Positions 2,465 through 30,755 of a stretch of 64,000 nt of DNA are shown here, piece after piece. The notes below the pieces were generated by a model that was not told the origin of the DNA, made no database searches, and saw nothing but the letters and a program-made list of their open reading frames with translations. The stretch comes from Candidatus Heimdallarchaeum aukensis (GTDB lineage Archaea; Asgardarchaeota; Heimdallarchaeia; Heimdallarchaeales; Heimdallarchaeaceae), in assembly GCA_021513695.1 (NCBI GenBank), contig CP084166.1:416001-480000 (forward strand), given 5' to 3'. Each line of letters begins with the position of its first letter. The first letter of the stretch is position 1. The position numbers were made by a program, and so were the translations under genes.

Positions 2465-2655
2465 TAAAGAGTTTTTATTATTTTTAAGATATTAAAGCTA
2501 TTGGTTAAACAATTTTTGAAATAATAATATCTTTCTCTTTAAGTGATATTGTTTTTCTACTCTAATTTGAGTAAAATCTCCTATTTTAGTTGTAATTCTT
2601 TCATTATTTTTTTAAGTCAAGAGATAAACCAATTTAAAAATTTAAATAATGTTAG

Positions 2656-5600: not shown

Positions 5601-8445
5601 CTGTATATGACTCTTTAATTTTCACAATTTCTTCGGGAGTACCAAAACCAACTAAATATCCTCCCTTTTCTTCTCCTCCTTCAGGACCTAAATCAATGAT
5701 ATAATCTGCAGTCTTAATTACATCTAACTGATGCTCTATTACAAGAACGGTGTTTCCTTTATCTACTAATTCTTGTAAAACTTTGATTAGTTTCTTGATA
5801 TCTTCAAAACTTAAACCTGTAGTTGGTTCATCTAAGATATACAGAGTCTTACCAGTAGCTCTTTTAGCTAATTCTCTACTCAATTTTATTCTTTGCGCTT
5901 CTCCTCCAGAGAGAGTAGTAGAAGACTGACCTAATTTTATATAGTCTAAACCTACAGCTTCAAGAGTTTTGAGTATTCTAACAATTTTAGGTTGGTTCTC
6001 AAAAACATTTAATGCTTCACTTACAGTCAAGTTAAGTATATCTGCGATAGAATATCCTTTGTATTTAACTTTAAGTGTTTCATCATCATATCTGTTTCCT
6101 TTACAAATTTCACACTCTACCTCAACATCAGGTAAAAGAGACATCTCTATAGTGTTAAAACCTTTTCCTTGACAAGCTTCACATCTACCAGGGCTGTTAT
6201 TAAAACTAAATCTAGTTTTTGTATATCCTCTCAGTTTAGCAGTAGGAAGAGAAGCAAATAAGTCTCTAATAGGGTCAAGCATCTTTGTGTAAGTTGCAGG
6301 ATTTGAACGAGTAGTTCTACCTATAGGTGATTGGTCAATAACAACTACTTTATCGATATTCTCGACTCCTTTCAAAGTCTTGAATTTTCCTGCTTTCTGT
6401 TTTCCATGATGTAACTTATTTACTAAAGCGGGATAAAGGGTATCAGAAACTAAACTACTTTTACCGCTTCCAGAAACTCCAGTTACGCAAACAAATGTTC
6501 CTAAAGGTATCTTTACATCTATATTCTTTAGGTTATTGTGCTGAGCTCCTTTTAATTCAAGAAAAATATTGCTCTTTCTTCTCTTTTTAGGAACTGAAAT
6601 TGAGTCAAGGTTTAGTAAATATCTAGCTGTAAAAGAGCGTTTAGCGTCTTTTTCACTTATATCTCTAGGGTTTTTAGCAAAAAGTAATTCTCCGCCTAAA
6701 CTACCTGCTCGAGGTCCTAAATCTATTAAAACATCTGCACTCTGTAAAGTGTCTTCGTCATGTTCAACAACAATAACTGTATTCCCACCATCACGTAGAG
6801 TCTTTAAAGAAGAAAGAAGCTTTTCATTATCTCTATTTGCTAAACCTATGCTAGGTTCATCTAGAACATAATTAACTCCTTGAAGTTTAGCTCCTATTTG
6901 TGTTGCTAATCTAGTTCTTTGAGCTTCTCCGCCACTTAAATCAACAGCACTTCTATCTAAAGTGAGATAATGAAGACCCACCTCGATTAAAAAATATAAT
7001 CTGCTTATGATTTCCCTAAGAAGGGGTTTTGCTATCTTTTCTTCCTCTGGAGATAACTTTAAACTGTTAAAGAAATTGTAACATTCTTCTATAGACATTT
7101 GATTAAGTTCAGCAATATTTTTTCCATGGAAAAGTACAGATAGACTTTCATTCTTTAACCTTAGCCCTTTACAATCAGGACAAGTTTGAAGTTCCATATA
7201 TTGTTCTAAACGTTCTTTCATGCTTTTAGAAGAAGTTCTGTAATAACCCTCCATTGTTGCAGGAATAAAACCTTTCCATTTTACATCTGAAGTTCCCCGG
7301 GCTTTCCAGACACTATCTCTTGCTCCCCATTTCCAATTAATGGTATACTCTTTACTTCCAGTACCGTACATCAAGATTTGTTTGTGTTCTTCAGGCAAGT
7401 CCTTCCAAGGAATAGAAATATCAATACCTAACTGTTTAGCAATCTGTGCAATAGAATTTTTGCTCAATCCAGTATAAGTAAAGTGATCTCCACTTTTCGT
7501 CTGTAAAGCTATTGCATGTTCTAATAAAGGATTATCAGGATTAGTAACAAGTTTGTCGGGAACAATTTGAGGAAGCTTACCTAAACCTTTACATCTTGGA
7601 CAAGCTCCAACAGAAGAATTATAAGAAAAATCTCGAGGGTGAAATTCATTAACAGATAAACCACATTGAGGACAAACAAGCTTATTAGAAAAAATCTTTT
7701 TTTCCTTTTCTCCAATAATCTTTACTTTCCCATCAGCGAGATCTAAGCAAAGATCTACACTATCACGGATACTAGCTTCATTTTTCCTCAAACATTTATT
7801 TCTATCTACAACTATTTCAATATCATGGGCGACATATCTTTCCAATTTTGGAAACTTTTCATCCAGATTAATCTCTTCTCCATCAATGATTAAACGAGTA
7901 AAACCTTCTTCTTTCCATTTTGCTAGTTCTTTCCTGTACTCACCTTTTCTTTTTTTAAACATTGGTGCAACAATCTTGACTTTTTGTCCTTCAAAAGAAG
8001 CGAATATTTGATCTATTATCTGATCAGAAGGTTGTGCATCTATTTTAATATTACATATTGGACAATGAGGAACACCTACTCTAGCAAAAAGAACACGCAA
8101 GTAATCATATATTTCTGTTAAAGTTCCAACAGTACTTCGGGGATTCCTAGAAATGGTTTTCTGGTCAATAGAAATGGTAGGTCTTAAACCTTCAATATGT
8201 TCAACATCTGGACGATCAAAGTTGCCAATAAATTGTCTAGCATAAGCAGATAGAGTTTCCATATATCTTCTCTGAGCTTCTGAAAAAATAGTATTGAAAG
8301 CTAGTGAACTCTTCCCACTACCTGAAACGCCAGAAATTACCACTAGTTTATCATGTGGAATAGAAATAGTTATGTCTTTCAAGTTATTTTCTTTAGCTCT
8401 AATAATTTTAATACTGTCAGTACTAGAAGTCATATGATTATTCAC
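2656..8445 (-). CDS. uvrA: Tandem-duplicated (single-chain dimer) UvrA excinuclease ATPase, 1929 aa with four ABC nucleotide-binding modules
   Basis: Four Walker A sites (GVSGSGKSSL three times, GVSGAGKSSL once), each preceded by an N-L-K-N/D-I/L motif. Four ABC signature motifs (LSGGEAQR three times, LSNGEAQR once). The UvrA-type SxxARQF motif occurs twice (SAYARQF, SSYARQF). CxxC zinc modules recur. Each half is about 950 aa, the size of a full class I UvrA. Confidence 0.85.
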   Translation of the reverse strand: MNNHMTSSTDSIKIIRAKENNLKDITISIPHDKLVVISGVSGSGKSSLAFNTIFSEAQRRYMETLSAYARQFIGNFDRPDVEHIEGLRPTISIDQKTISRNPRSTVGTLTEIYDYLRVLFARVGVPHCPICNIKIDAQPSDQIIDQIFASFEGQKVKIVAPMFKKRKGEYRKELAKWKEEGFTRLIIDGEEINLDEKFPKLERYVAHDIEIVVDRNKCLRKNEASIRDSVDLCLDLADGKVKIIGEKEKKIFSNKLVCPQCGLSVNEFHPRDFSYNSSVGACPRCKGLGKLPQIVPDKLVTNPDNPLLEHAIALQTKSGDHFTYTGLSKNSIAQIAKQLGIDISIPWKDLPEEHKQILMYGTGSKEYTINWKWGARDSVWKARGTSDVKWKGFIPATMEGYYRTSSKSMKERLEQYMELQTCPDCKGLRLKNESLSVLFHGKNIAELNQMSIEECYNFFNSLKLSPEEEKIAKPLLREIISRLYFLIEVGLHYLTLDRSAVDLSGGEAQRTRLATQIGAKLQGVNYVLDEPSIGLANRDNEKLLSSLKTLRDGGNTVIVVEHDEDTLQSADVLIDLGPRAGSLGGELLFAKNPRDISEKDAKRSFTARYLLNLDSISVPKKRRKSNIFLELKGAQHNNLKNIDVKIPLGTFVCVTGVSGSGKSSLVSDTLYPALVNKLHHGKQKAGKFKTLKGVENIDKVVVIDQSPIGRTTRSNPATYTKMLDPIRDLFASLPTAKLRGYTKTRFSFNNSPGRCEACQGKGFNTIEMSLLPDVEVECEICKGNRYDDETLKVKYKGYSIADILNLTVSEALNVFENQPKIVRILKTLEAVGLDYIKLGQSSTTLSGGEAQRIKLSRELAKRATGKTLYILDEPTTGLSFEDIKKLIKVLQELVDKGNTVLVIEHQLDVIKTADYIIDLGPEGGEEKGGYLVGFGTPEEIVKIKESYTGQALKKVLEGEKRELEKEQTVSKNSISTSDKELDPSSFLYVKGAKKNNLKNLDLTIPKNNLVVVTGVSGSGKSSLVIDTLFAEGQRRFIESLSSYARQFLNRAERTEVEEIVGLTPSIAIDQHSISHNPRSTVATTTEIYDYLRLLFAKVGIPHCPKCSIELKQRTETEIAKLIRKEFKDKKIYLAASVLNGEQVDISKIVKELKKEGYTRILLNEKLLHLDEEFSVDNVKTLSVVIDRIDLSKVEDTRFVDSLEIARELGKGRIEVYSTDKKGKRYSFNAECLEHGIEVPEEIHPRLFSFNHYSGACPTCTGLGMIRKFDIRKIVTDWNKSIIEGAIGPYTAQRMSNPNSWRRSMLESVGKHFGFTLSTPLKDFTPQQLHALFYGSDGEIVEIVYRQESRKSVSEYIREKPWEGLIPRWDDWMKSETDSTWSLKYKEKMNQYYSEYLCPDCKGEKLKPEVLAITINNKSITDLTKYSVKDFLVFLNNIILDKRRSKIAERILSELKKRAQYLVDVGLEYLTLDRRASTLSNGEAQRIRLASQIGSGLIGVTYCLDEPTIGLHPRDINRLLDTMKKLKENGNHVIVVEHDDTIIKESDYIIELGPRGGEEGGEIINFGSTNEVLKSESSLTGSYIYGKRKIKTPTKRRKTSENITLVGAQENNLKNITAKFGKGIITAVSGVSGAGKSSLVIDTLQKALEKKISKKKIEAGKHKEIKGFEDIKKVIAVDQSAMSKSVRSTPATYLGVFDEIRKFYAELPESRNRGMSSAHFSFNVKKGQCPECKGLGQKKVELLFLSDVWLTCPICKGKRYNKKVLAVKYKQKSISDILEMTIEEAYELFRDLEKISAPLKLAVEAGLGYLKMGQPTTTISGGEAERLKIVRELSKRTYGNSIYILDEPSQGLHFFDLEKLIEILHRLANKGHSVVLIDHEMNLIKQADYVIDLGLEGGELGGYIISEGKPEEIVQKQMGYTWVYLKESMN

Positions 8446-15394: not shown

Positions 15395-17251
15395 TTAATA
15401 TTTCTTTCCACAGATATCAATTTCTTCAAAAGTTTCCTTAACTTTATTTTTCTTTTGTTTTGTTCTGAAGATAATTTCAAATAAAACAATTGAAAAAATG
15501 AAAATCATCCAAACTATACTTTTACTGATAATTTCTTTTCTTCTAGTAATACCTATGTTTGAATTAGGATCTAATGGGTCAAAATCATTCATTACTTCTT
15601 CATAATCAGTATATGAATCTCCATCTGTATCAGGATCGTTGGGATCAGTATTATAAAATTTTACTTCTTCAAAATCGTCCAATCCATCAAAGTCACTATC
15701 TATGCGTAAAGGATTAGTATGGTAAATAAATAATTCTTCATAATCATCTAGTAAGTCACCATCTGTATCACGATTTAGGGGACTAGTATTGTAATTATTT
15801 ACTTCTTCTCCGTCTTTTAATCCATCATTATCAGAATCACTATCATTGGGGTCAGTATCGTACATGTAAATTTCAAGATTATCAGACAAACCATCCAAAT
15901 CTGAATCTTTTAATGTAGGATTTGTTCCATAAACAAATACTTCTACTCCATCATCTATTCCATCATTATCTGAATCATCATTTGTAGGATCTGTTCCATA
16001 AGCGTATATTTCATCACCATCTAATAATCCATCAAAGTCAGTATCATTATTCCTTGGATCAGTATTGTTTTCAAATTCGTGAATATTATATAATTCATCA
16101 TTATCAAAGTCAACATAGGCATCAATTGGATTAGCAACATCTAAACCATAGTAATATTCCCAGTAATTTGTCATTCCATCGCTGTCTAAATCTCCATCAG
16201 CATCGCTTGGATCATCAGGATCTAATCCTACACTAACTTCCCAGTAATCAGGCATTTTATCGTTATCACTATCTCTTACTAGTTTTATGATAAAAGCATC
16301 AATATATCCTTCCAAAGTGGAATTTAAAGGGCTTTTTAAAAGAAGATCATTACTCTCTGTACTCCCTACTATGTAGATAGAACCATCACTATCCACTGCT
16401 ATATCTCTACCTACATCTTCTTCTCTTCCACCAAAATATGTGCTAAAAACTAAATTTGTTCCACTTCTGTTTAACATAGAAACAAAAATATCGGAATAAT
16501 AAGTAGGATTTCTTTCTTCAATTGCATTTTTAATCGGAAAATCATTGCTCCATGTTCCACCTGTTAAATAGACGTTTTGATCATTATCTACCGTTATTGA
16601 CAAACAAGTATCATTTGATGAACCACCTAAAAATGTACTATAGATTATATTATCAGCTGTTGAACTTATTTTTGTTAAAAATATGTTAGAATATCCATTT
16701 AGTGTGTCATCAAAGGCATTTTTTGTTGGAAAGTCAGTACTATTTGTAACACCAGTGATATATACATAACCTTCACTATCAATAGTTATTCCTCTGGCAT
16801 AATCATTATACTTTCCCCCTAAATAAGTGCTAAAGATTAACCCATTTCCTGTAGAGTTAATATAGGATAAATAAACATCAAAAAAGCTTCCACCACCATA
16901 AGTAGAATTAAAAGCATTTACAGTCGGAAAATCATCACTTCTTGTAGATCCAGTAATGAAAATAGAACCATTAGAGAAAACTTTACCTTTAGCAAAGTAT
17001 TCAGCATCACTTCCCCCTATTATTGTGGTGAAAATAGGTTCAAGAGTTTCTCCATCAAGTTTAGTAACAAAAGCATCATAATCATCATCTGAAATATTTC
17101 CAAAAGCAAAGTTGTTGAATAAAGAAGTGCTCATAGTATCTCCAAAAATGTATATATTTCCATCATTTCCTATTTCTATCTTGCGTCCATAATCAAAAAT
17201 ATCCCCGCTTAAATAAGAACTAAAATCTACTAAATAAGGATCAATAATCAA
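15395..17251 (-). CDS. Surface protein, C-terminal segment: SBBP-type beta-propeller repeats plus thrombospondin type-3-like Ca-binding repeats and a C-terminal TM anchor. It is in frame with 17336..18067, so the two are probably one gene.
   Basis: Recurring blocks of the form G-x-I/D-I-D-S-x-G-x-hydrophobic-Y-I-x-G-x-T-x-S-x-D-F-P (SBBP beta-propeller repeat). Multiple D-x-D-x-D-G-L-x-D-x-x-E units follow, then a hydrophobic helix and a basic tail. The annotated start is a TTG that simply continues the upstream reading frame. Confidence 0.6.
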   Translation of the reverse strand: MIIDPYLVDFSSYLSGDIFDYGRKIEIGNDGNIYIFGDTMSTSLFNNFAFGNISDDDYDAFVTKLDGETLEPIFTTIIGGSDAEYFAKGKVFSNGSIFITGSTRSDDFPTVNAFNSTYGGGSFFDVYLSYINSTGNGLIFSTYLGGKYNDYARGITIDSEGYVYITGVTNSTDFPTKNAFDDTLNGYSNIFLTKISSTADNIIYSTFLGGSSNDTCLSITVDNDQNVYLTGGTWSNDFPIKNAIEERNPTYYSDIFVSMLNRSGTNLVFSTYFGGREEDVGRDIAVDSDGSIYIVGSTESNDLLLKSPLNSTLEGYIDAFIIKLVRDSDNDKMPDYWEVSVGLDPDDPSDADGDLDSDGMTNYWEYYYGLDVANPIDAYVDFDNDELYNIHEFENNTDPRNNDTDFDGLLDGDEIYAYGTDPTNDDSDNDGIDDGVEVFVYGTNPTLKDSDLDGLSDNLEIYMYDTDPNDSDSDNDGLKDGEEVNNYNTSPLNRDTDGDLLDDYEELFIYHTNPLRIDSDFDGLDDFEEVKFYNTDPNDPDTDGDSYTDYEEVMNDFDPLDPNSNIGITRRKEIISKSIVWMIFIFSIVLFEIIFRTKQKKNKVKETFEEIDICGKKY

Positions 17252-17335
17252 TTTTTTAGCTGTATCATATTGTTCAATATTAAAAATATAACAGTTGTCA
17301 TCAAGAGTAAAATAAGCGGGGATAATTTTTCCTTC

Positions 17336-18067
17336 TTAAAAAACTTTTAAGTTTCTATCATTAAAAATTCTATATTCTGTATTTCCGATTCTTGAGATTC
17401 CAACTATATTAGTTTCATCTTCTTGTTTTAAGTAAAACTTTGAATCTGATGATAGTTGAACCTTAATAACTGAAGGATCAGCGTTTGGTTCAACAATAAA
17501 TTCGTATTTCAGAAATGAACCTGTAAAATAGTATCTTAAAGATATTCCGGGGTATATATCTTCATATATTATTTCTTGATAACAGCTTATTTGAGTAATT
17601 GCTTTATCTTTGTAAAAAAAGTTAGAATAGTAATTTGCTAATGCTTTTGCCTGTGGTACAACGATATTTGAATCAGGAAAAGAGACATTAATTAAGAAAA
17701 ATTTAGTATTTTCTTCTTTATTCGGTTTAAGATTCTGAATAAAGTAGACCTTAGATTCTCCAAAGTAAACATTTGTTAAAGGAGATTGAGCATAATAAAA
17801 AACTGTCTTGTCAAATATATGCCCTTTATTTTTCATAAAAAAGTATTTAGAATTGTAATCACTGACATAGTTCTCTTCAATTTCGCCGGAAACACTGTAA
17901 AAATTAATTTTTGCTTTATTTTGCTGTTGTGAATATTTTATGCTGTAAGAGCCAACTAAAGTGTTATTTTTGACATAAAATCCAGATAAACTGCTCACAC
18001 TTACAAGAAAGATTAAAAACAAACAAACAATAAATGAAACATTTCCTTTGCTTTGATTTTCATTCAT
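17336..18067 (-). CDS. N-terminal segment (signal peptide plus N-terminal domain) of the same surface protein. It is terminated by an in-frame TAA at 17336..17338.
   Basis: 243 aa with a signal/TM N-terminus. It ends YPGISLRYY...LKYEFIVEPNADPSVIKVQL, typical of the N-terminal domain of SBBP-repeat proteins. The same frame continues in sense after the TAA (RGKIIPAYFTLDDNCYIFNIEQYDTAKKLIIDPYL...). Confidence 0.55.
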   Translation of the reverse strand: MNENQSKGNVSFIVCLFLIFLVSVSSLSGFYVKNNTLVGSYSIKYSQQQNKAKINFYSVSGEIEENYVSDYNSKYFFMKNKGHIFDKTVFYYAQSPLTNVYFGESKVYFIQNLKPNKEENTKFFLINVSFPDSNIVVPQAKALANYYSNFFYKDKAITQISCYQEIIYEDIYPGISLRYYFTGSFLKYEFIVEPNADPSVIKVQLSSDSKFYLKQEDETNIVGISRIGNTEYRIFNDRNLKVF

Positions 18068-20241: not shown

Positions 20242-21156
20242 ATGAAAATTGGTTTTTCTATTCCAATATCAGAAAATAATAAAAATCAGTTACATTATGT
20301 TAAAAATCTTAACGATTTAGGAATAGAACAATTTTGGATAGGAGATAATCCTCCTGTAAACAACGCTTTTCTCACTATTGAACATATTTTAAGTAGAATA
20401 GAAAAAATTACTTTAGGAACAGGAATTACTTCTCCCTTTTATTATTCTAAACAGACTTTAGTAGGCACAGTAGAGTATTTCATAAAAAATTATGGTAAAA
20501 GATTCATTTTGGGGTTGGGTTTTGGAAAAAAGAAGTCTTTTTTTGACAGTAATGAGAGATTAGATTTTAGAAAATTTCAATCTTACACTCATGAATTAGT
20601 AGAAACAGTTAGACACAGATTACAGAAAAACAATTTGCAAGATTCTTTTTCTTATGCTATAGGAGGTTTAGGTAATAGTATATCAAAATTTGCTATTCTC
20701 AATGCTGACATATTCTTGGTGAATAGTGCTTCTAAATATGATCTCAAGCGAATAAATAAGATATTCAACAGTTTTGATGATAAAAAGAAAAGCCAAGTGT
20801 TTCTTTATTGTATGATGGAAATAAGAGAGAAGAAAGAAAACATTTCTCTCAAATTATGGAATATAGTTAAAGACATAGCTCGCAACTCATCTCTAAATAT
20901 ATTGGAAGAGCATAACTACTCTCAAAGTATGATAGAAAAAATAAAGCAATTACCTCCAGAATACATGTTTAAAATTCCTGAAGGAGAAGTAGTTCATATA
21001 GTCAATGATTTTGCTTTGGTTGGTAAAATCGATGAATTAGCGGAAAAGGTTTCTAATTTAATGAAAACTTCTAAAATAATCGATGGCTTAATTTTTGGGT
21101 GGACCAACGAAATTTATGACTACAAAAAAATAGCTGATTTTCTAGAATTGCTTTGA
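20242..21156 (+). CDS. Luciferase-like monooxygenase (LLM) family flavin/F420-dependent oxidoreductase
   Basis: 304 aa. MKIGFSIP...GIEQFWIGDNPP matches the LLM TIM-barrel N-terminal consensus (MKFG...GFDSVWVSDH). Confidence 0.55.
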   Translation: MKIGFSIPISENNKNQLHYVKNLNDLGIEQFWIGDNPPVNNAFLTIEHILSRIEKITLGTGITSPFYYSKQTLVGTVEYFIKNYGKRFILGLGFGKKKSFFDSNERLDFRKFQSYTHELVETVRHRLQKNNLQDSFSYAIGGLGNSISKFAILNADIFLVNSASKYDLKRINKIFNSFDDKKKSQVFLYCMMEIREKKENISLKLWNIVKDIARNSSLNILEEHNYSQSMIEKIKQLPPEYMFKIPEGEVVHIVNDFALVGKIDELAEKVSNLMKTSKIIDGLIFGWTNEIYDYKKIADFLELL

Positions 21157-21211
21157 ATTACGCCAATTTATTTGAATATATTTAAATATTTAATTATTAA
21201 GCGAAAAATCT

Positions 21212-22174
21212 ATGAGCTCTTCAGATTTTGCTGTAGAAACCAATAGGTTAACAAAAGATTATGGATCATTAAGGGCAGTAAATGAAATTGATCTATCTAT
21301 TGAAAAATCAGAAATTTTTGGTTTGCTTGGTCCAAACGGTGCAGGAAAAACTACTACCATCAGGCTTCTTTCTGGAATGCTAACACCTACTTTTGGAAAA
21401 GCTAAAGTTTTAGGTATGGATTCTGTGGAAAAATCCCTCCAAATCAGAGAAAAAACAGGATTACTGACTGAAACCCCTTCGATTTATGACAGATTAACTG
21501 TTAGAGAAAACCTTACTTTCTTTGGTAGAATATATGGAGTTAAAACTGATTCCTTGAGAAAGAACATTGATAAATTGTTGGATATTTTTGATTTAGAGGA
21601 GAAAATAGATACAAAGGCAGGTACCTTATCAAAGGGTATGCGACAGAAAGTAGCAATAGCAAGAACACTTATTCATGATCCTGAACTCATATTTCTTGAT
21701 GAACCTACAGCTTCTCTTGCTCCTGAATCAGCTAAAGTTGTTAGAGATCTAATCCTTAATTTAGCAAAGGAGAGTAAAAAAACTTTCTTTATTGCAACAC
21801 ACAACCTCTATGAAGCTGAAATACTTTGTGATAGAGTAGCAATTATAAACAGAGGAAAAATTCTTGCAGTAGGAAAGCCTAAAGAACTCAAAGAAATGAT
21901 GAAGGGAGAAACATATACGATTATTAAATTCCAAGAATGGAACAAGGAAATAGAAAACTTTCTTGAAGCACATAATTACAAGATAAGTAATCTTGCCAAA
22001 GAAGAAAGAAAAATACACATAAAATTAAAGGACATTGAAAAAGAAACACCAGCTTTAATTAAAAAATTAATTGAGAATAATTACAACATTGTAGAAGTTT
22101 TCCACGAGAGACCTTCTTTAGAAAAGATCTATCTTGAACTAATAGAAAAAGAATCAAATGGAGGATTGAATTAG
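21212..22174 (+). CDS. ABC transporter ATP-binding protein
   Basis: Walker A GPNGAGKTTT, Q-loop, signature LSKGMRQKVAIA, Walker B LIFLDEPT and an H-loop. Confidence 0.9.
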   Translation: MSSSDFAVETNRLTKDYGSLRAVNEIDLSIEKSEIFGLLGPNGAGKTTTIRLLSGMLTPTFGKAKVLGMDSVEKSLQIREKTGLLTETPSIYDRLTVRENLTFFGRIYGVKTDSLRKNIDKLLDIFDLEEKIDTKAGTLSKGMRQKVAIARTLIHDPELIFLDEPTASLAPESAKVVRDLILNLAKESKKTFFIATHNLYEAEILCDRVAIINRGKILAVGKPKELKEMMKGETYTIIKFQEWNKEIENFLEAHNYKISNLAKEERKIHIKLKDIEKETPALIKKLIENNYNIVEVFHERPSLEKIYLELIEKESNGGLN

Positions 22175-22990
22175 ATGAGATGGGATAGAATTTGGGCTTT
22201 AGCTAAAAAAGATATTAAAGATTATACTAAATCTAAATATGTTTTCTTTACAATTATCTTCATGCCATTATTTCTTTCTCTTATAATGGCAATATCAGGT
22301 GTTTTACCACTAGTTAGTATTCCTGAAGATGAGGTCGATGAAGATGATTTTGCTTCTATCGATAATATTGTAGCAAATGTGGTAAAAGGCTGGAATGACT
22401 TTAATCCCAAACAGAAAATGCTAATTATTAGTGCTTATGGGATGCTATTCTTTGTTGCTCTCATACCAATAATTATACCGTCAATAATAGCTTCGGAAAC
22501 AATAGTAGGCGAAAAAGAAAGGAAAACAATGGAAGGATTAATTGCGTCTCCTCTCAGCGAAGGAGAGATAGTAGTAGGAAAAATAGTTTCTGCTTTTCTA
22601 CCCTCAATTATAGGAACAATTGTTGCTTCAATTGTTTATGCGGTAAGTGTTGATATTATGCTATATCGTGAGATAGGAAGACTTCTCTTTCCAGATCCTT
22701 TGATTATTTTATTTACATTCGTTATCAGCCCCATAACAACTATCCTTTGCGTAGAACTGATGATAATGATTTCAACAAAGATGTCAAGTGTAAGAGATGC
22801 CTATCAAATTGGTTCGCTTGTAGTTATGCCTGTGTTCTTCTTTGTTTTTCTTCAGATGGTGACCTTCTTCTTTTCAAGTTTATTATCAATACTAGCAGGA
22901 ACTACAATACTTATCCTATCTACAATTTTCTTCTACAAGCTTGCAGAGAATATTTTTGACAGAGAAAAAGCATTGGTAAAATTAGTTTGA
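22175..22990 (+). CDS. ABC-2 type transporter permease
   Basis: 271 aa with six predicted TM helices. It lies 0 nt after the ABC ATPase stop, so it is translationally coupled. Confidence 0.7.
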   Translation: MRWDRIWALAKKDIKDYTKSKYVFFTIIFMPLFLSLIMAISGVLPLVSIPEDEVDEDDFASIDNIVANVVKGWNDFNPKQKMLIISAYGMLFFVALIPIIIPSIIASETIVGEKERKTMEGLIASPLSEGEIVVGKIVSAFLPSIIGTIVASIVYAVSVDIMLYREIGRLLFPDPLIILFTFVISPITTILCVELMIMISTKMSSVRDAYQIGSLVVMPVFFFVFLQMVTFFFSSLLSILAGTTILILSTIFFYKLAENIFDREKALVKLV

Positions 22991-22994
22991 TTTT

Positions 22995-23063
22995 CTTTTC
23001 TCTTTTTTATTTTTATTTTCAGAAAAATTTTTATTAAATATATAAGGATATAATTGAAGGGGT
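22995..23063 (+). promoter_or_regulatory. Conserved 5' region of the tandem surface-protein paralogs (putative BRE/TATA plus an AGGGG SD-like box before a TTG start)
   Basis: cagaaaaatttttattaaatatataaggatataattgaaggggtt TTG. An almost identical string precedes the downstream paralog at 25228..25302. Confidence 0.3.
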
Positions 23064-25118
23064 TTGAACAGAGCAAAAAAAATAGTACCTTTAGCTATAA
23101 TATTTGTTCAAATAATTCTTTTTACTAGCTTACAGTATAGTTCCGTCAATGCAGATGAGATTCAGTATAACGTAATTGGAATAAACATCAATTCCGATAG
23201 TGATTTTATTGATTTTGCAAGGACAGGAGCAGGAACTAAAGAAGATCCCTACATAATTTCAGGGTATCACTTTGAGTACTATGAAATTGGGATATTTATT
23301 TCACAAACAAGTAAATATGTCATAATAACTAACTGTTCTTTTTCTAACATCAAATATGAAGCAATAAGATTGTGGTCTGTCAAATCTGGAACAGTAAGAA
23401 TAGAAAACAATACGATTGTTAATGCAAAAGTGGGAATATTCCTATATGAAGCTCCAGATTGTACAATAATAAGTAATAAAATAATGAACTGTTCTGCTTT
23501 TGCAATTAAAGATGATTTTTCTAGAATAGGATCAAAAATTATGAACAATACACTTTATAACAACGAAGAAGGAATAACCATAAGTGAAACTAATTACACT
23601 CAAATACTGAATAATTACATAATTTACAGTAGAAATGTTGGCATTTATTTAATGGATACCACAAATGGAACAGAAATACATCATAACTTCTTCTTAAATG
23701 CTAACAAACCTGCTTTTACAACAGCTTGTAGTTATGGATATTATAATAATTGGACATCAAATTATTGGAGTGATTGGGATGGTTCAAGTCCATATAAAAT
23801 AGAGAGTAAATATGAACAAACTTTTGACACAAATCCTTTAAGTTTCGATGACTCTGATGGAGACAAAATAATCGATATTTTAGAACTTGTTATGGATATG
23901 AATCCAGAATCAACCGACAACGACTCTGATGAAATTTCAGATTATGATGAATTACTTATTTATGCAACAAACCCTAATACAATAGATACAGATGAAGATG
24001 GAATAACAGATTATGATGAAATATTTGTATATTTAACAAATCCGAATACACAAGATACAGATAAAGATGGAATAACAGATTATGATGAAGTATTTGTATA
24101 TCATACAGATCCGAATAAAAAAGACTCAGATGGTGATACCTTTTCAGATTATGAAGAAATATTACAGAAAACCAATCCTAGGAAAAGTTATAGTAATCCA
24201 ATTACAAAAAAATATTTGACAATCTTTCTTCCAATTTTTTCAGGTTTATTTGGTGTTGCATTTCTTTCAACTAGATATTACTCTAACTCAAAGAAAAACA
24301 AAATTAAGGTAATCTTTGACACATGGAATGAATTTTTCAATGAATGGGAAAAAATAATTGAACAGATAAATAAATCAGGAAATTCAGAAATAGAAGAAAT
24401 AATCTTTGAGGTAAATCAGTTAAAAGAAAAAAAAGTAGATGAGCTTGAATTTGTCAAAAAAATAGTAGCTCAATCAAAGAAACTACTTATAGAACATATG
24501 AAATTCAACGTTGAATTAAGTTTACAAAAATACAAAAAGCAAATAGAAATTTTTGTTAACCTACAGAGTAATTTGATTGATAAAGCTTTAATTACCCTTA
24601 ATCAAATAACAGAAAATACAATTCTTAATGCTGTAAAAGATTATTTGTGGATGAGATTCGTTTATTTGTATAGTACTACTAGCAAATCAGAAGCAATTAC
24701 CACTATTGAAGATGTGAGTGGAGATGCACTTTTTAACAAGTTCATTAAATTTTATAGATCTTTAGATTATGAGGAAAGACTGAAAAAAGAAATATCCAAC
24801 TTAGCAGAAGAAGTAAAATTTCAGATAAATCAAGCAAAAAAATATGAAATTGAGCTTATAGAAAGTTCAATAAACTCTATTATTGATTCTCTATTTGATA
24901 AATTTAATAAACTTGAGATCGATATAAATATTCTTCAAGAAAAAATCAAGGATATAAACATCGCTCAGATTAAACTAGATAATCCTTCCGAAACTTTTGT
25001 TAGAATCGAAAATATAGTAAAAGAAGAAGTGAACATACAAATGAAAGATAAAGAAGAGTCTATTCAGTCTAATCTTTTCTCTAATCAAGAAAAAGGGTTA
25101 AAGAATCCGCGTGAATAG
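23064..25118 (+). CDS. Receptor-like type I membrane protein: signal peptide, right-handed parallel beta-helix, TSP3-like Ca-binding repeats, a single TM helix, and a cytoplasmic coiled-coil domain. TTG start.
   Basis: 684 aa. Beta-helix rungs (NNTIVNAKVGIFLY, CTIISNKIMNCSAF, NNTLYNNEEGITIS). Four DTDxDGITDYDE repeats. A TM helix (IFLPIFSGLFGVAFLS), then a 300-aa K/E-rich heptad region. Confidence 0.7.
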   Translation: MNRAKKIVPLAIIFVQIILFTSLQYSSVNADEIQYNVIGININSDSDFIDFARTGAGTKEDPYIISGYHFEYYEIGIFISQTSKYVIITNCSFSNIKYEAIRLWSVKSGTVRIENNTIVNAKVGIFLYEAPDCTIISNKIMNCSAFAIKDDFSRIGSKIMNNTLYNNEEGITISETNYTQILNNYIIYSRNVGIYLMDTTNGTEIHHNFFLNANKPAFTTACSYGYYNNWTSNYWSDWDGSSPYKIESKYEQTFDTNPLSFDDSDGDKIIDILELVMDMNPESTDNDSDEISDYDELLIYATNPNTIDTDEDGITDYDEIFVYLTNPNTQDTDKDGITDYDEVFVYHTDPNKKDSDGDTFSDYEEILQKTNPRKSYSNPITKKYLTIFLPIFSGLFGVAFLSTRYYSNSKKNKIKVIFDTWNEFFNEWEKIIEQINKSGNSEIEEIIFEVNQLKEKKVDELEFVKKIVAQSKKLLIEHMKFNVELSLQKYKKQIEIFVNLQSNLIDKALITLNQITENTILNAVKDYLWMRFVYLYSTTSKSEAITTIEDVSGDALFNKFIKFYRSLDYEERLKKEISNLAEEVKFQINQAKKYEIELIESSINSIIDSLFDKFNKLEIDINILQEKIKDINIAQIKLDNPSETFVRIENIVKEEVNIQMKDKEESIQSNLFSNQEKGLKNPRE

Positions 25119-25227
25119 CTTTATTTCTCTTTTATAGTTGATACTTTTATTACAATGAACTTACTCACAATCTCTCTCCAAAAATATGAAATATAATCTT
25201 TCTTCCTAATGAATCAAACATTATTTA

Positions 25228-25302
25228 TAATCTAATTTCACTTTTCTTTTTTCAATTTTAGAAAAATTTTTATTAAAGGTACAAAGATATGATTGAAGGG
25301 GT
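25228..25302 (+). promoter_or_regulatory. Duplicated 5' region of the second paralog (same BRE/TATA-like and SD-like boxes, TTG start)
   Basis: tttcaattttagaaaaatttttattaaaggtacaaagatatgattgaaggggtt TTG. This matches 22995..23063. Confidence 0.3.
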
Positions 25303-27288
25303 TTGAAAATAAAAAAGTCAAAATCTAATCTGTTAGTTTTGTTTTTAATATTGTTCTTTACTAGTTCTACCTATTTTCATATAAAAGCAGATGATAATAC
25401 AAAATCAGGTTTTGCAATTCAAATCTCTTCTAACGATGAATTTTCTTTATTTTCAAAAGCAGGTAACGGAACTAAAGAAAATCCCTATGTTATCTCAGGA
25501 TATATCATTGAACACTTCGAAGCAGGTATTTTTATATCTCAAACAACCAAATTTTTCGTTATTACTAATTGTACTTTTCTTAATCTAAAATATGAAGCCA
25601 TACGAATAATGACAGTAGATGTTGGTAATGTTAGAATAGAAAATAATACGATTATTAATACAAAGTTTGGAATTTATATATATCAAGCTCCAAAAAGTAT
25701 TATTGTAAATAACAAAATCGTTAATTGCACTGTATCAGGAATAAGAGACGAATTTTCAGGAATAGGTTCTAAAATTGAAAACAACACTCTTTACAACAAT
25801 GAAGAAGCTATTACAATTTATTCAACAAATTATACTCAAATATTAAATAATTATATAATCAAAAGTCGGAAAGCTGGCATATTTCTATTGTGGAAACCAA
25901 ATGGAACAGAAATACATTATAACTTTATTCTAAACTCAGTAAAACCTTATATTGCAACTGCTCACAACGAAGGATTCAATAATAATTGGACATCAAATTA
26001 TTGGAATGACTGGAATGGAACAGGAGATTATCAAATAAGTAGCATTTATGAAACAACATTTGATAAAAATCCTTTGAGTTTTAATGACACTGATGGAGAT
26101 AAAATAATTGATATTTTGGAACTTGTAATGAATACAGATCCTTATGTGGTAGATAGCGACAATGACGGAATTGATGACTATAATGAATTGCTTAATTATG
26201 CAACAAACCCTAATGCCCAAGACAGTGATGGAGATGGAATATCTGATTATGACGAAATAATTGTATATACAACAAATCCCAATGCACAAGACACTGATGG
26301 AGATGGAATAACAGATTATGATGAAGTATTTGTTTATGGAACTGATGCAAAGAAACGAGATACTGATGGCGATACTTTTTCTGATTATGAAGAAATATTA
26401 ATGAAAACTAACCCTAAAAAAAGTTACAGTAATCCTATTATTAGAAGATATCTAACCATCTTAATTCCTACTTTTTCAGGAGTACTTGTTATTGCAGCTT
26501 TTTCAACTAGATACTATACCAACTCAAGGAGAAACAAAATTAAGGTGATTTTTGAAACATGGAATGAATTTTTCACTGAGTGGGAGAAAATAATTGAGCA
26601 GATAAACAATACAAAAAATTCAGAAGTTGAAGAAATAATATTTGAGGTAAAGGAACTTAAAAATAAGAAAATTGACGAACTTGAGCTTGTAAAGAAAATA
26701 ATCAGTCAAGCTAAAAAATTACTTATCAATCATATGAAGTTCAATGTTGAATTAAGCTTACAAAGATATAAAAAGCAAGCTGAAATTGTAATTAATCTAC
26801 AGAATAACTTAATTAGCCAAGCATTAACTGCTCTTAATCAAATAACAAAGAATACAATACTAAACGCTGTAAAAGATTACTTGTGGATGAGATTTGTTTA
26901 TCTATATAGCACAACAGAAAAATCTGAAGCCATAACTACTATTGAAGATATAAGTGGAGACACTCTTTTTAACAAGTTTGTCAAATTTTACAAATCATTA
27001 GATTATGAAGAGAGATTGAAAGAAGAAGTTGCTCATTTGGCAGAAGAAATCAAATATCAAATAAGAAAAGCCAAAGATTATGAAATTGATCTTTTAGAGA
27101 GTTCAATAAATTCAATTATAGACTCTTTACTTGATAAGTTTAACAAGCTTGAAGTTGATATTAATTTTCTTGAAGAAAAAATAAAAGACATTAGTGTTGA
27201 ACAGTCCAAGATCGATAATCCAAAAGATGCCTTCTTAAAAATAGAAAAAATAGTTAAAGAAGAAGTGAAAGAACAAAAAAGCAATTAA
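25303..27288 (+). CDS. Tandem paralog of 23064..25118 with the same architecture: beta-helix, TSP3-like repeats, TM helix, cytoplasmic coiled coil. TTG start.
   Basis: 661 aa, collinear with and similar to the upstream gene along its whole length (eyeball estimate roughly 60-65% identity). Confidence 0.7.
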   Translation: MKIKKSKSNLLVLFLILFFTSSTYFHIKADDNTKSGFAIQISSNDEFSLFSKAGNGTKENPYVISGYIIEHFEAGIFISQTTKFFVITNCTFLNLKYEAIRIMTVDVGNVRIENNTIINTKFGIYIYQAPKSIIVNNKIVNCTVSGIRDEFSGIGSKIENNTLYNNEEAITIYSTNYTQILNNYIIKSRKAGIFLLWKPNGTEIHYNFILNSVKPYIATAHNEGFNNNWTSNYWNDWNGTGDYQISSIYETTFDKNPLSFNDTDGDKIIDILELVMNTDPYVVDSDNDGIDDYNELLNYATNPNAQDSDGDGISDYDEIIVYTTNPNAQDTDGDGITDYDEVFVYGTDAKKRDTDGDTFSDYEEILMKTNPKKSYSNPIIRRYLTILIPTFSGVLVIAAFSTRYYTNSRRNKIKVIFETWNEFFTEWEKIIEQINNTKNSEVEEIIFEVKELKNKKIDELELVKKIISQAKKLLINHMKFNVELSLQRYKKQAEIVINLQNNLISQALTALNQITKNTILNAVKDYLWMRFVYLYSTTEKSEAITTIEDISGDTLFNKFVKFYKSLDYEERLKEEVAHLAEEIKYQIRKAKDYEIDLLESSINSIIDSLLDKFNKLEVDINFLEEKIKDISVEQSKIDNPKDAFLKIEKIVKEEVKEQKSN

Positions 27289-27295
27289 AAAGTTT

Positions 27296-28411
27296 CTAAT
27301 GTATCCTTAGATTAGGTGGAATAAGGTTTAGAACTCCACAGGCTGGACATTCTATTACTCCATTTTCGTTCATGTCTTTTAGATCTAAGAGTTCTCCACA
27401 ATTCCCTGCACAATACATGGGAATTAATTCTGGTCCTTCCTTTACTCCTTCAATTGCACTATTAATCTTTGGAATAACTTCTTTGTAGAGCCTTTCGTGT
27501 ATTTGATCCACTTCATAACCGTAGACCCATATAGCTATATTTCCACTTTTTTCTTTTCCTGTGATTATAAGTTCAACTATAGAAATATCTTTTTTTCCGA
27601 TTTGGGAGACAAACATCAGGTTTCCAATGAAATTTTCACTTGTATCCATTACTATCTGTTCGTTCACTGTTTTATAAGAATCAAATAAGGTTTTTAAAAC
27701 TTTAAAAGCGACTTTTGGCTTTGCATGGAATTCTATTGATCTTCCTAATGAATCGAGCTTGTTGTTCTTTAATTCCATTAAAGCTTCATAATAACCATTT
27801 TCTATTCTTTCTTTAAGTATTAAAGCTCGTTCCTCTCTTTTTTTGTAAGCTTCATAGATTAGTTCTGTAAATTCAGCTTGTTTTTTCTTAACTATTGTAA
27901 ATTTCGTTCCTTCATGTATCTTTACAGGGGGAAAAGGCAAGCTACCTATTATTTGAGACTGAACAATATATGGTTCTCTTAAAGTTGAAGGAACAATAAA
28001 GCTTAACGAAGTACCGTAATCGATTATTTTTCCAATGTTTCCCTCTCTTACTATTGAACTCCAATCTCCTCCAGGAATTGTAACTGTATCTGGAACAGCC
28101 AAAAACACAACATCTGCTCTCGGGGGAGCAGAAGATATTAAAGCTGTTACTTCTTCTCCATCACCTATTTCTCCTGCAATTCTTTTGTCCAAGTATATTA
28201 AAGGATTTTTTCCTTTTTTTACTATCTCATTGATTTCAGCAAAAACTGAACTAGTCCTTCCAATTGTAGAAGAAAAGAGAAGAGCATATTTTTCATCATC
28301 TGCAAGTTCTAATTCAGTATCTTCTGGTAAAACTATACCTATACCGTTTCTAAAAACTAGTTTAACTTTACATGTAACCGTTTTCACATTCCTCTCTAAG
28401 AAAATCCTCAC
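27296..28411 (-). CDS. Hypothetical protein with a C-terminal C4 zinc ribbon
   Basis: 371 aa. The C-terminus is CAGNCGELL...ECPACGVLNL (C-x3-C...C-x2-C). No other motif recognised. Confidence 0.4.
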   Translation of the reverse strand: MRIFLERNVKTVTCKVKLVFRNGIGIVLPEDTELELADDEKYALLFSSTIGRTSSVFAEINEIVKKGKNPLIYLDKRIAGEIGDGEEVTALISSAPPRADVVFLAVPDTVTIPGGDWSSIVREGNIGKIIDYGTSLSFIVPSTLREPYIVQSQIIGSLPFPPVKIHEGTKFTIVKKKQAEFTELIYEAYKKREERALILKERIENGYYEALMELKNNKLDSLGRSIEFHAKPKVAFKVLKTLFDSYKTVNEQIVMDTSENFIGNLMFVSQIGKKDISIVELIITGKEKSGNIAIWVYGYEVDQIHERLYKEVIPKINSAIEGVKEGPELIPMYCAGNCGELLDLKDMNENGVIECPACGVLNLIPPNLRIH

Positions 28412-29702: not shown

Positions 29703-30755
29703 ATGATGAGTAAACAAAAAAACAAAAAAACAAATAACACAGAAGTATACAAGAAAATTTTTCAGACGGCTCAAGATTCAATTTTTTTGCTTAATAAGAA
29801 TAATGTCTTTATAGATTGCAATCCTTATACTTGTGATATGTTTAATTGTGAGAAAGAAGATATTATTGGAACAACCCCAGTTGAATGGTCTCCTGAACTA
29901 CAGTTTGATGAAGTTCCTTCAGAAAAAAAGGCTAAACAATATATAAACAAAGCCTTTTCTGGAACACCTCAACGCTTTGAGTGGATTCACAAAAAAAAGA
30001 CAGGAGAATTATTTTATTGCGAAGTTTCTCTTAATAAGGTTGTAATAGATGGAGAAGATTTTTTACAAGCAATAGTACGTGAGATAACAGAAAAAAAATT
30101 TATTGAAGAAGTTGATTTAATATTCTCAAAAATAATTGACCATGATACCAGAAATATAGCCTTTGCAACTACTTCATACATCAATCTAATTCGAAATAAC
30201 TTTGAAGTAAATGAAAAACTAGATAATTATCTTAAAAGAATAGAAGATAATTTAGAAGAATTAATGAGTATTATAAATAAATTTTCAATTTTACATGAAG
30301 TCATGTATGAAACAAAAAAGCAAGTAATAAACCTTTATGAGACTGTTTGCAAAAGCATTCAACTTTTTGAAGAGAAATTAGGAGAAAAAAAAGTTGTAGT
30401 TGAAAACAAGATTAACAAAAATCACAAAGTAATTGCGGGGAATTTATTGATTGAAGTAATTAACAATTTAATAAGTAATTCCCTTCGGCACGCAAATGCT
30501 AATAAAGTTTTAATAAAAAGCAAAGAAACTCCAGAAAAAATAATTCTTGTTTTTGCAGATGATGGAAAAGGTTTTGACGAAAATTTATTACCTAATTTAT
30601 TTAAAGAAGGAATAAAAGGTCGTGATTCAAAAGGATCTGGTCTCGGTTTATATATTTCTAAAAAAATAATTAATTTATATGAAGGACATATTTCAGCAAG
30701 AAATGCAAGTAAAGGCGGAGCTGAATTTATTATTGAATTAGAAAAAGCAGATTGA
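29703..30755 (+). CDS. Cytoplasmic PAS-domain sensor histidine kinase
   Basis: 350 aa. N-terminal PAS fold, an H-box (HDTRNIAF) and HATPase_c N/G boxes (NNLISNSLRHA, DDGKGFD, GSGLGLYISKKI). Confidence 0.8.
   Translation: MMSKQKNKKTNNTEVYKKIFQTAQDSIFLLNKNNVFIDCNPYTCDMFNCEKEDIIGTTPVEWSPELQFDEVPSEKKAKQYINKAFSGTPQRFEWIHKKKTGELFYCEVSLNKVVIDGEDFLQAIVREITEKKFIEEVDLIFSKIIDHDTRNIAFATTSYINLIRNNFEVNEKLDNYLKRIEDNLEELMSIINKFSILHEVMYETKKQVINLYETVCKSIQLFEEKLGEKKVVVENKINKNHKVIAGNLLIEVINNLISNSLRHANANKVLIKSKETPEKIILVFADDGKGFDENLLPNLFKEGIKGRDSKGSGLGLYISKKIINLYEGHISARNASKGGAEFIIELEKAD

Follow-up and report, generated by a model that had tools for sequence, protein, structure and literature searches.

The 64,000-nucleotide stretch of the Candidatus Heimdallarchaeum aukensis genome analysed here (contig CP084166.1, positions 416,001 to 480,000; referred to below as the window) carries two adjacent genes, gene 1 and gene 2, whose paralogous products are predicted to combine a right-handed parallel beta-helix, thrombospondin type-3 (TSP3) repeats, a transmembrane helix and a long helical cytoplasmic domain (Table 1). 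A preliminary description of this DNA had reported two adjacent open reading frames (ORFs) with TTG starts, and both are found where it placed them. Every residue of the two products matches UJG41194.1 and UJG41195.1, two proteins encoded next to each other in the closed genome (3.08 Mb) of this organism, and the starts annotated by NCBI are the same as those used here. Both genes are thus already in GenBank, under generic beta-helix names only: NCBI calls each product a "right-handed parallel beta-helix repeat-containing protein", and the automatic name of one of them in UniRef is "Probable pectate lyase C". Literature searches on Asgard archaea and thrombospondin and on beta-helix surface proteins of Heimdallarchaeia gave no description of the family to which the pair belongs, and the genome paper of Ca. 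Heimdallarchaeum aukensis makes no mention of surface proteins, adhesion, promoters or start codons. A structured RNA or tRNA in the region was considered and dismissed, the Rfam search at gathering thresholds and the tRNA scan of the whole 64-kb window both being empty.

Table 1. Positions of the features discussed, numbered within the window unless another contig is named; domain assignments are predictions, with residue ranges under Remarks
Feature	Positions	Strand	Remarks
DrrA-type ATP-binding cassette (ABC) ATPase	21212-22174	+	Pfam, NCBIfam
ABC-2 permease, PF12679	22175-22990	+	Pfam, NCBIfam
Duplicated 5' flank, gene 1	22997-23063	+	putative B recognition element (BRE)/TATA AGAAAAATTTTTATTAAA at 23021-23038; ATTGAAGGGGT at 23053-23063, abutting the start codon
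Gene 1	23064-25118	+	684 aa, TTG start; identical to UJG41194.1
Gene 1, signal peptide			residues ~1-30
Gene 1, beta-helix	23238-23843		residues ~59-260
Gene 1, five TSP3 repeats	23844-24197		residues 261-378
Gene 1, transmembrane segment	24216-24272		residues 385-403
Gene 1, cytoplasmic helical domain	24273-25115		residues 404-684
Spacer between the copies	25119-25235	+	117 nt, unique, T-rich, outside the duplicated unit
Duplicated 5' flank, gene 2	25236-25302	+	putative BRE/TATA at 25260-25277; ATTGAAGGGGT at 25292-25302
Gene 2	25303-27288	+	661 aa, TTG start; identical to UJG41195.1
Gene 2, signal peptide			residues ~1-29
Gene 2, beta-helix	25474-26079		residues ~58-259
Gene 2, five TSP3 repeats	26080-26433		residues 260-377
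Gene 2, transmembrane segment	26452-26508		residues 384-402
Gene 2, cytoplasmic helical domain	26509-27285		residues 403-661
371-aa gene	27296-28411	-	convergent, GTG start, C-terminal CxxC...CxxC zinc ribbon
Surface protein, SBBP propeller ectodomain, TSP3, transmembrane segment, tail	15395-17251	-	618 aa
Surface protein, Beta_helix/NosD ectodomain, TSP3, transmembrane segment, tail	45536-48505	+	989 aa
Surface protein, FG-GAP repeat propeller ectodomain, TSP3, transmembrane segment, tail	57796-62244	-	1482 aa
Copy-number locus, contig L009	8792-10780		
Copy-number locus, contig L001	8001-9953		
Copy-number locus, contig L004	1904-5917		JGI/ENA contigs of the same type keep two copies

Pfam places Beta_helix and NosD matches over residues ~59-240 of both proteins, followed by TSP3_bac repeats. 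The Beta_helix E-values are 4e-15 and 1.5e-16 (PF13229, 56.1 and 60.9 bits in genes 1 and 2, cutoff 25.9), NosD scores ~1e-16 and is the top match of gene 1 (1.2e-16), and TIGR03804 (29.5 and 19.6 bits, cutoff 19.45) and TSP3_bac (PF18884; 37 and 52 bits, cutoff 25) are also above their cutoffs. Regular-expression counting finds five DxDxDGxxDxxE motifs per protein at a spacing of 23 residues, for which calcium binding is predicted. The AlphaFold2 model of the full-length protein is confident over residues 40-380, with a predicted local-distance difference test score (pLDDT) of 83-97, and shows beta strands between residues 63 and 255, then five TSP3 turns with a short helix in each, and a transmembrane helix at residues 379-405; the part after it is modelled as entirely helical, with low confidence (pLDDT 50-60). 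The beta-helix is short, with ~200 residues in ~9 rungs, and long loop insertions of the active-site type are absent from the model. The structure prediction that the preliminary description had suggested as a check thus confirms, at the level of a model, a pectate-lyase-like, three-stranded right-handed parallel beta-helix, and no specific subfamily stands out.

Hydropathy analysis gives only two hydrophobic segments, the N-terminal signal and one transmembrane segment, the latter in the same place as the AlphaFold2 helix, so that the transmembrane helix claimed earlier is upheld by both. The signal segment consists of a K/R-rich n-region and an h-region and then VNA or IKA followed by D. With a Sec-type signal peptide and a single C-proximal transmembrane segment, the proteins are, as predicted, type-I (bitopic) membrane proteins. 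The ectodomain contains 8-10 N-glycosylation sequons and 2-4 cysteines and the C-terminal part one sequon and no cysteine, an asymmetry that fits the outside/inside split of this topology. The architecture given in the preliminary description (signal peptide, beta-helix, TSP3 repeats, one transmembrane helix and a long helical cytoplasmic region) therefore stands, except that it had counted four TSP3 repeats rather than five.

The two genes are collinear paralogs over their full length, as had been proposed, and their similarity is somewhat higher than the 60-65% estimated by eye. BLASTP aligns residues 21-659 of gene 1 with residues 20-658 of gene 2 without gaps (E = 0), with 438 of 639 positions identical (69%) and 83% positives. 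At the nucleotide level, blastn similarity runs over 22997-25041 and 25236-27277 (74.4% identity over 2051 nt), and because of these limits the duplicated unit is taken to start 67 nt 5' of each start codon; it ends close to the stop codon of the shorter copy. The spacer between the copies bears no similarity to the sequence downstream of gene 2, and its T-rich stretch probably holds the terminator of gene 1. The synonymous divergence (dS) between the paralogs is 1.26, near saturation, and the ratio of nonsynonymous to synonymous divergence (dN/dS, by the Nei-Gojobori method) is 0.16. By region, dN/dS is 0.077 in the cytoplasmic domain, 0.157 in the beta-helix, 0.198 in the TSP3 repeats and 0.75 in residues 21-58; comparisons between orthologs, where dS is lower, give the same ranking, with 0.07-0.125 for the cytoplasmic domain. 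As judged from these alignments, the tandem duplication is old, its unit of ~2.05 kb comprises the putative promoter and the whole coding sequence, and both copies are under purifying selection.

The conservation of roughly 70 nt upstream, including a TATA-like box, was also part of the preliminary description and is borne out here. Identity between the copies is 56 of 67 positions (84%) from -67 to -1 and 41 of 47 (87%) from -47 to -1, compared with 58% at four-fold degenerate sites and 32% beyond -68 (binomial P ~1e-5). The A/T-rich box AGAAAAATTTTTATTAAA occupies -43 to -26 from the TTG of both genes. The upstream block is also kept in the two copies of contig L004 and in Ca. H. endolithica PR6, and the core AGAAAAA-TTTTTATTAAA is invariant. 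By analogy with the established archaeal promoter consensus, we infer that this core, from its shape, is a BRE plus a TATA box. When 42 genes of the window are compared, the best TATA-like match lies most often at -35 to -26 from the start codon, which makes short or absent leaders look typical for the genes of the window, and the distance between box and start codon in gene 1 falls in the modal class.

The TATA-like box precedes each TTG by ~26-31 nt. In both genes, a TGA in the same frame is found 9 nt before the TTG, ruling out an upstream in-frame ATG, and the earliest internal Met is residue 141 of gene 1 and residue 103 of gene 2, in agreement with the earlier observation that no ATG is available near either N-terminus. 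No other ATG, GTG or TTG occurs within the first 60 codons of gene 1. After the TTG, a K-rich n-region is kept at the protein level in all relatives, and the ortholog P0006, which is 39% identical, has an ATG in the homologous place (ATTGAAGCAG-ATG compared with ATTGAAGGGGT-TTG in the window). Because of the TGA, the lack of an alternative start in gene 1, the conserved n-region and the ATG of P0006, the TTG starts of both genes are well supported by the comparison of sequences.

A Shine-Dalgarno element requires a spacing of 5-10 nt to the start codon. The AAGGGG box that had been noted before the TTG is indeed present, but its GGGG ends 1 nt, not 3 nt, before the start codon, and because of this spacing it is unlikely to be a Shine-Dalgarno element. 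Moreover, relatives vary the box (GAGGT, GGGAT, GCAG), while ATTGAAG is constant in them. A review (PMC7531240) finds no prevalence of Shine-Dalgarno motifs in an Asgard genome and an avoidance of UUG on fully leaderless mRNAs of Saccharolobus, for reasons that concern the RNA polymerase. The mRNAs of gene 1 and gene 2 would be leaderless or have a leader of 2-8 nt, and the conserved G-run may offer a purine at which transcription begins a few nucleotides ahead of the UUG, a codon that could not itself fill this role.

Among the relatives, for which loci are designated by L and proteins by P numbers, P0006 is equally distant from both copies, and each copy has its own ortholog on the JGI/ENA contigs L004 and L005; for these reasons the duplication is placed after the divergence of the P0006 lineage and before the split between the aukensis and endolithica types. 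The closed genome of Ca. H. endolithica PR6 (CP084167.1, contig L009) and a Logan contig have a single gene of 662 aa (called as 650 aa). This gene is a hybrid: its 5' half is ~100% identical to copy 1 of L004 and its 3' half 97-100% identical to copy 2, with the switch in the TSP3 region. Such a structure points to unequal recombination between tandem copies, assembly collapse being less likely.

In L004 itself, copy 1 (1904-3816) is split into two ORFs and, compared with the other copies, lacks 97 nt, and one metagenome-assembled genome at NCBI annotates gene 1 as two fragments of 252 aa (P0176) and 425 aa (P0005). These splits could reflect pseudogenisation in some populations or assembly errors. 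Along positions 14500-36500 of the window, the identity to L009 is a mosaic that ranges from 64% to 99% per 300-nt interval, with near-identical patches to PR6 that include 16000-17700, and the beta-helix segment of gene 2 has a dS of 0.059 to L004, compared with 0.3-0.5 for the rest of the gene. The mosaic and the low dS together suggest recent recombination between the aukensis and H. endolithica-type lineages.

The most constrained part of the proteins, the cytoplasmic domain, contains hardly any Pro or Gly; its length is 281 aa in gene 1 and 259 aa in gene 2. It is predicted to consist of a beta-beta-alpha-beta unit followed by helices of 86, 14, 61 and 37 residues (pLDDT 68, predicted template-modelling score 0.38), the long ones at residues 50-135, 166-226 and 238-274 of the domain. 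A crude score for heptad a/d positions is 0.37-0.39, about 3 standard deviations above that of shuffled sequences (0.28 +/- 0.03), and helices of 61-86 residues are predicted. The motif KD(Y/F)LW is invariant near the end of the first long helix. An exhaustive search with a profile of the domain against 1.84 billion cluster representatives found it in three proteins only (P0004, P0006 and P0121); a scan of 185,579 species genomes gave two loci, one in Ca. H. endolithica PR6 and one in the uncultured archaeon that encodes P0121. All members with the cytoplasmic domain have the full architecture. As far as these searches reach, the domain is limited to a handful of Heimdallarchaeaceae proteins.

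No known family could be assigned to it. There is no Pfam match at E up to 10, no NCBIfam match at E up to 1, and no PDB sequence-profile match at E up to 10 beyond chance-level coiled coils. The best neighbours by Foldseek in the PDB are generic antiparallel coiled-coil hairpins, such as those of chemoreceptors and SMC proteins, with E > 0.4. Comparison by hhalign with P0098 and P0019 was likewise negative, the probability of a relation to the other kind of Heimdallarchaeial cytoplasmic region being 0.2%.

From domain content, the pattern of selection and the genomic context, from which all functional steps given here are inferred, we consider it an even chance that gene 1 and gene 2 encode paralogous type-I surface, coat or adhesion proteins that have diverging ectodomains and share a cytoplasmic partner-binding domain. 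The calcium-stiffened TSP3 stalk would hold the beta-helix off the membrane, and the beta-helix would bind, rather than cleave, glycans or surface material of a partner cell within an amorphous coat. The cytoplasmic domain, as a helical hairpin, would bind a cytoplasmic partner, either as an anchor or to link the cell exterior with the interior. After the duplication, the tips of the ectodomains would have diverged toward different ligands, while the nearly constant cytoplasmic domain would have kept the same partner. Several points weigh against this assignment. The function is read from the architecture alone, and the cytoplasmic model is of low confidence, which makes the hairpin arrangement tentative. 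Most of the structures closest to the beta-helix belong to enzymes (lyases, epimerases, glycosidases). Initiation at a UUG is expected to be weak when the mRNA is nearly leaderless. Finally, a link to transport is conceivable, since close relatives keep an ABC-2 transporter next to the beta-helix gene or genes.

That the pair resembles a signalling or adhesion receptor rather than an enzyme, as proposed in the preliminary description, is plausible in that the constraint on the cytoplasmic domain is strong and the catalytic motif of AlgG is not conserved, although no known signalling output domain is detectable. The enzymatic alternative, in which a membrane-tethered lyase, hydrolase or epimerase would act on the envelope glycans of the cell itself or on environmental polysaccharide and the transmembrane and cytoplasmic parts would be a mere anchor, is in our view improbable. 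Its best arguments are the top PDB sequence-profile match, which is the epimerase AlgG (6e-9), and the automatic UniRef name. The catalytic motif of AlgG is DPHD. In the profile alignment, however, the AlgG segment GIDPHDRSHG aligns with EAIRILSVKNG and DPHD falls on IRIL or IRLW, which excludes an AlgG-type epimerase; the helix is short and lacks, in the model, the long inserted loops of which active-site clefts are usually made, and the only polar residues that are invariant with distant relatives, N208, N233 and D255, lie where the helix ends. An enzymatic role would also leave the strongly constrained 260-aa cytoplasmic domain unexplained. It is exactly this domain, with its low dN/dS and its invariant KD(Y/F)LW motif, that lends something to the view of the proteins as signalling receptors, in which ligand binding would shift the packing of a dimeric cytoplasmic hairpin and so recruit or regulate a soluble signalling protein, for example a nearby PAS histidine kinase, as an analogue but not a homologue of chemoreceptors. 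The nearest Foldseek neighbours are chemoreceptor hairpins (2ch7, a non-significant E = 0.46), and genes for PAS or PAS histidine kinase proteins are located close by (29703-30755) and right after the ortholog in L002 and L003. Nevertheless, we regard signalling as unlikely: neither MCPsignal, HAMP, HisKA, a kinase nor any other output domain was found (Pfam at E up to 10, NCBIfam up to 1), the fold matches, all with E > 0.4, were obtained with a model of low confidence, PAS kinases are so abundant in these genomes that their proximity is weak evidence, and the P0121 locus has no signalling neighbours.

We have also considered a mechanotransducing complex of the NosDFY kind, where the beta-helix would dock on a NosY-like permease driven by a NosF-like ATPase. 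The NosD match of gene 1, the permease immediately upstream, whose only PDB match is NosY (E = 1.2e-3), and the ATPase, which matches NosF at 1.7e-35, are compatible with such an arrangement, as is the retention of the ATPase-permease-beta-helix trio in L002 at 39% identity with both flanks different. However, we rank this alternative low, as very unlikely. The NosD model TIGR04247, whose cutoff is 300 bits, gives the two products 33.6 and 29.9 bits, a promoter block of its own precedes each of the beta-helix genes (and the stop codon of the permease is followed by a T-rich tract), the P0121 locus has no ABC neighbour, and permease orthologs that are 46-47% identical occur in other Heimdallarchaeia (L011-L014) without a beta-helix neighbour. 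In L015 and L016, where the permease is 49% identical, a beta-helix gene lacking the tail lies beside it on the opposite strand, and the ATPase matches the nucleotide-binding domains of the ABCA type far better than NosF. In addition, the known NosD (NosDFY, PDB 7o0y) is soluble and has neither a transmembrane segment nor a cytoplasmic domain. Domains of nosZ, nosL or nosR were not found in the ORFs scanned, i.e., the neighbours between 18.5 and 30.8 kb and most of the larger ORFs of the window.

Starting from the favoured assignment as surface, coat or adhesion proteins, a more far-reaching version would see the pair as Asgard-specific analogues of adhesion receptors, in which the glycan- or partner-cell-binding beta-helix on its calcium-dependent TSP3 stalk is coupled, mechanically or allosterically, across the membrane to a lineage-specific hairpin domain that engages cytoskeletal, membrane-remodelling or signalling proteins. 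This we hold to be decidedly doubtful; if true, it would constitute an outside-in link like that of eukaryotic adhesion receptors, but one that arose independently in the archaea most closely related to eukaryotes. On present evidence, gene 1 and gene 2 are an uncharacterised but unsurprising pair of paralogs. They are nevertheless concrete candidates for the amorphous Asgard coat, the components of which are largely unassigned, and their constrained orphan cytoplasmic domain offers a handle on whether Asgard surface proteins are wired to the interior, a question that bears on the contact with syntrophic partners. The locus is also a small case study of the duplication of a promoter together with its gene, of UUG starts maintained on probably near-leaderless mRNAs, and of copy-number change by recombination between tandem paralogs.

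Upstream of the pair, the ABC ATPase and permease genes are accompanied by an LLM-class (luciferase-like) oxidoreductase. They are syntenic with the beta-helix gene or genes in L001, L002, L004 and L009 and not in L011-L014 and L006. The cluster formed by the ABC pair and the LLM oxidoreductase (20242-22990) is conserved across Heimdallarchaeia (L011-L016), and more distant lineages add a nitroreductase and a class-V aminotransferase to it. This distribution suggests that the ABC transporter belongs to the LLM-oxidoreductase cluster and not to the beta-helix genes, of which the ATPase and permease are probably not functionally obligatory partners. In L004, the ATPase and permease are called as one 526-aa fusion (209-1789), with ~195 nt missing (window positions ~22092-22285).

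The convergent 371-aa gene downstream of the pair has no ATG within its first 50 codons, and its product matches nothing in Pfam, NCBIfam or PADLOC. It is found near the beta-helix gene or genes in all close relatives and is much better conserved than these, with tblastn identities of 92-93% in L001, L004, L005 and L009 and of 66% in L002 and L003. A role in anti-phage defence was considered and dismissed, since PADLOC matches neither of the paralogs nor this neighbour. Farther away, positions 2656-8445 of the reverse strand encode a 1929-aa, double-length UvrA-like protein, in which the UvrA interaction domain and the UvrA DNA-binding domain each occur twice, along with ABC ATPase modules; its orthologs of ~1915 aa are located near the same ABC-2 transporter in other Heimdallarchaeia (L011 and L013).

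The use of TSP3 repeats as a membrane-proximal stalk appears, from the three further surface proteins of the window listed in Table 1, to be a general design in the Ca. Heimdallarchaeum aukensis genome, and gene 1 and gene 2 illustrate the modularity of Heimdallarchaeum surface proteins, i.e., a variable ectodomain, a TSP3 stalk, a transmembrane segment and a variable cytoplasmic module. In cultured Asgard archaea, cryo-electron tomography shows an amorphous protein coat in place of an S-layer lattice (bioRxiv 10.1101/2025.11.06.686947). The C-terminal ~150 aa of the protein encoded at 57796-62244 and the C-termini of P0098 and P0019 share another cytoplasmic module, which is winged-helix-like, ends in the conserved tail "...(S/D)WE..G.GKK", of which RDWEIIGEGKKKE and SEWEKTGKGKKE are examples, and is unrelated to the cytoplasmic domain of the pair.

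The closest known systems include other proteins of Heimdallarchaeia: the three further surface proteins of the window, P0098 from the same genome and a 663-aa protein of L015 have the same modular plan as gene 1 and gene 2, and the protein at 45536-48505, P0098 and the L015 protein also have the same type of beta-helix. On the cytoplasmic side they differ from the pair, with either a short basic tail or a long coiled coil that is unrelated and has a winged-helix-like end. P0098, in particular, has the same outside and a longer, unrelated cytoplasmic region. The CASH/PbH1 proteins, which include alginate lyases, AlgG/AlgE epimerases, phage tailspikes and the adhesin PfbA, share the pectate-lyase-like fold, whereas in the pair the helix is short, is fused to TSP3 repeats, a transmembrane segment and a large cytoplasmic domain, and matches no specific enzyme family. 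NosD (PF05048, TIGR04247, PDB 7o0y), a periplasmic protein of N2O-reductase maturation, differs in that the pair has its own transmembrane anchor and cytoplasmic domain. The TSP3 motif is shared with bacterial surface and outer-membrane proteins (PF18884), and hundreds of OmpA-TSP3 proteins were matched through this segment; compared with these and with the type-3 repeats of eukaryotic thrombospondin and COMP, the repeats of the pair are a membrane-proximal stalk, with no OmpA, EGF or lectin-like C-terminal domain. As for the methyl-accepting chemotaxis proteins, the hairpin likewise has long antiparallel helices below the membrane and a conserved motif near the turn according to the prediction, but with a Foldseek E of 0.46, a TM-score of 0.22 and no MCPsignal or HAMP match, the likeness is one of analogy only. 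Set apart by its orphan cytoplasmic domain, the pair is thus a modest variation on a design that is common among archaeal surface proteins.

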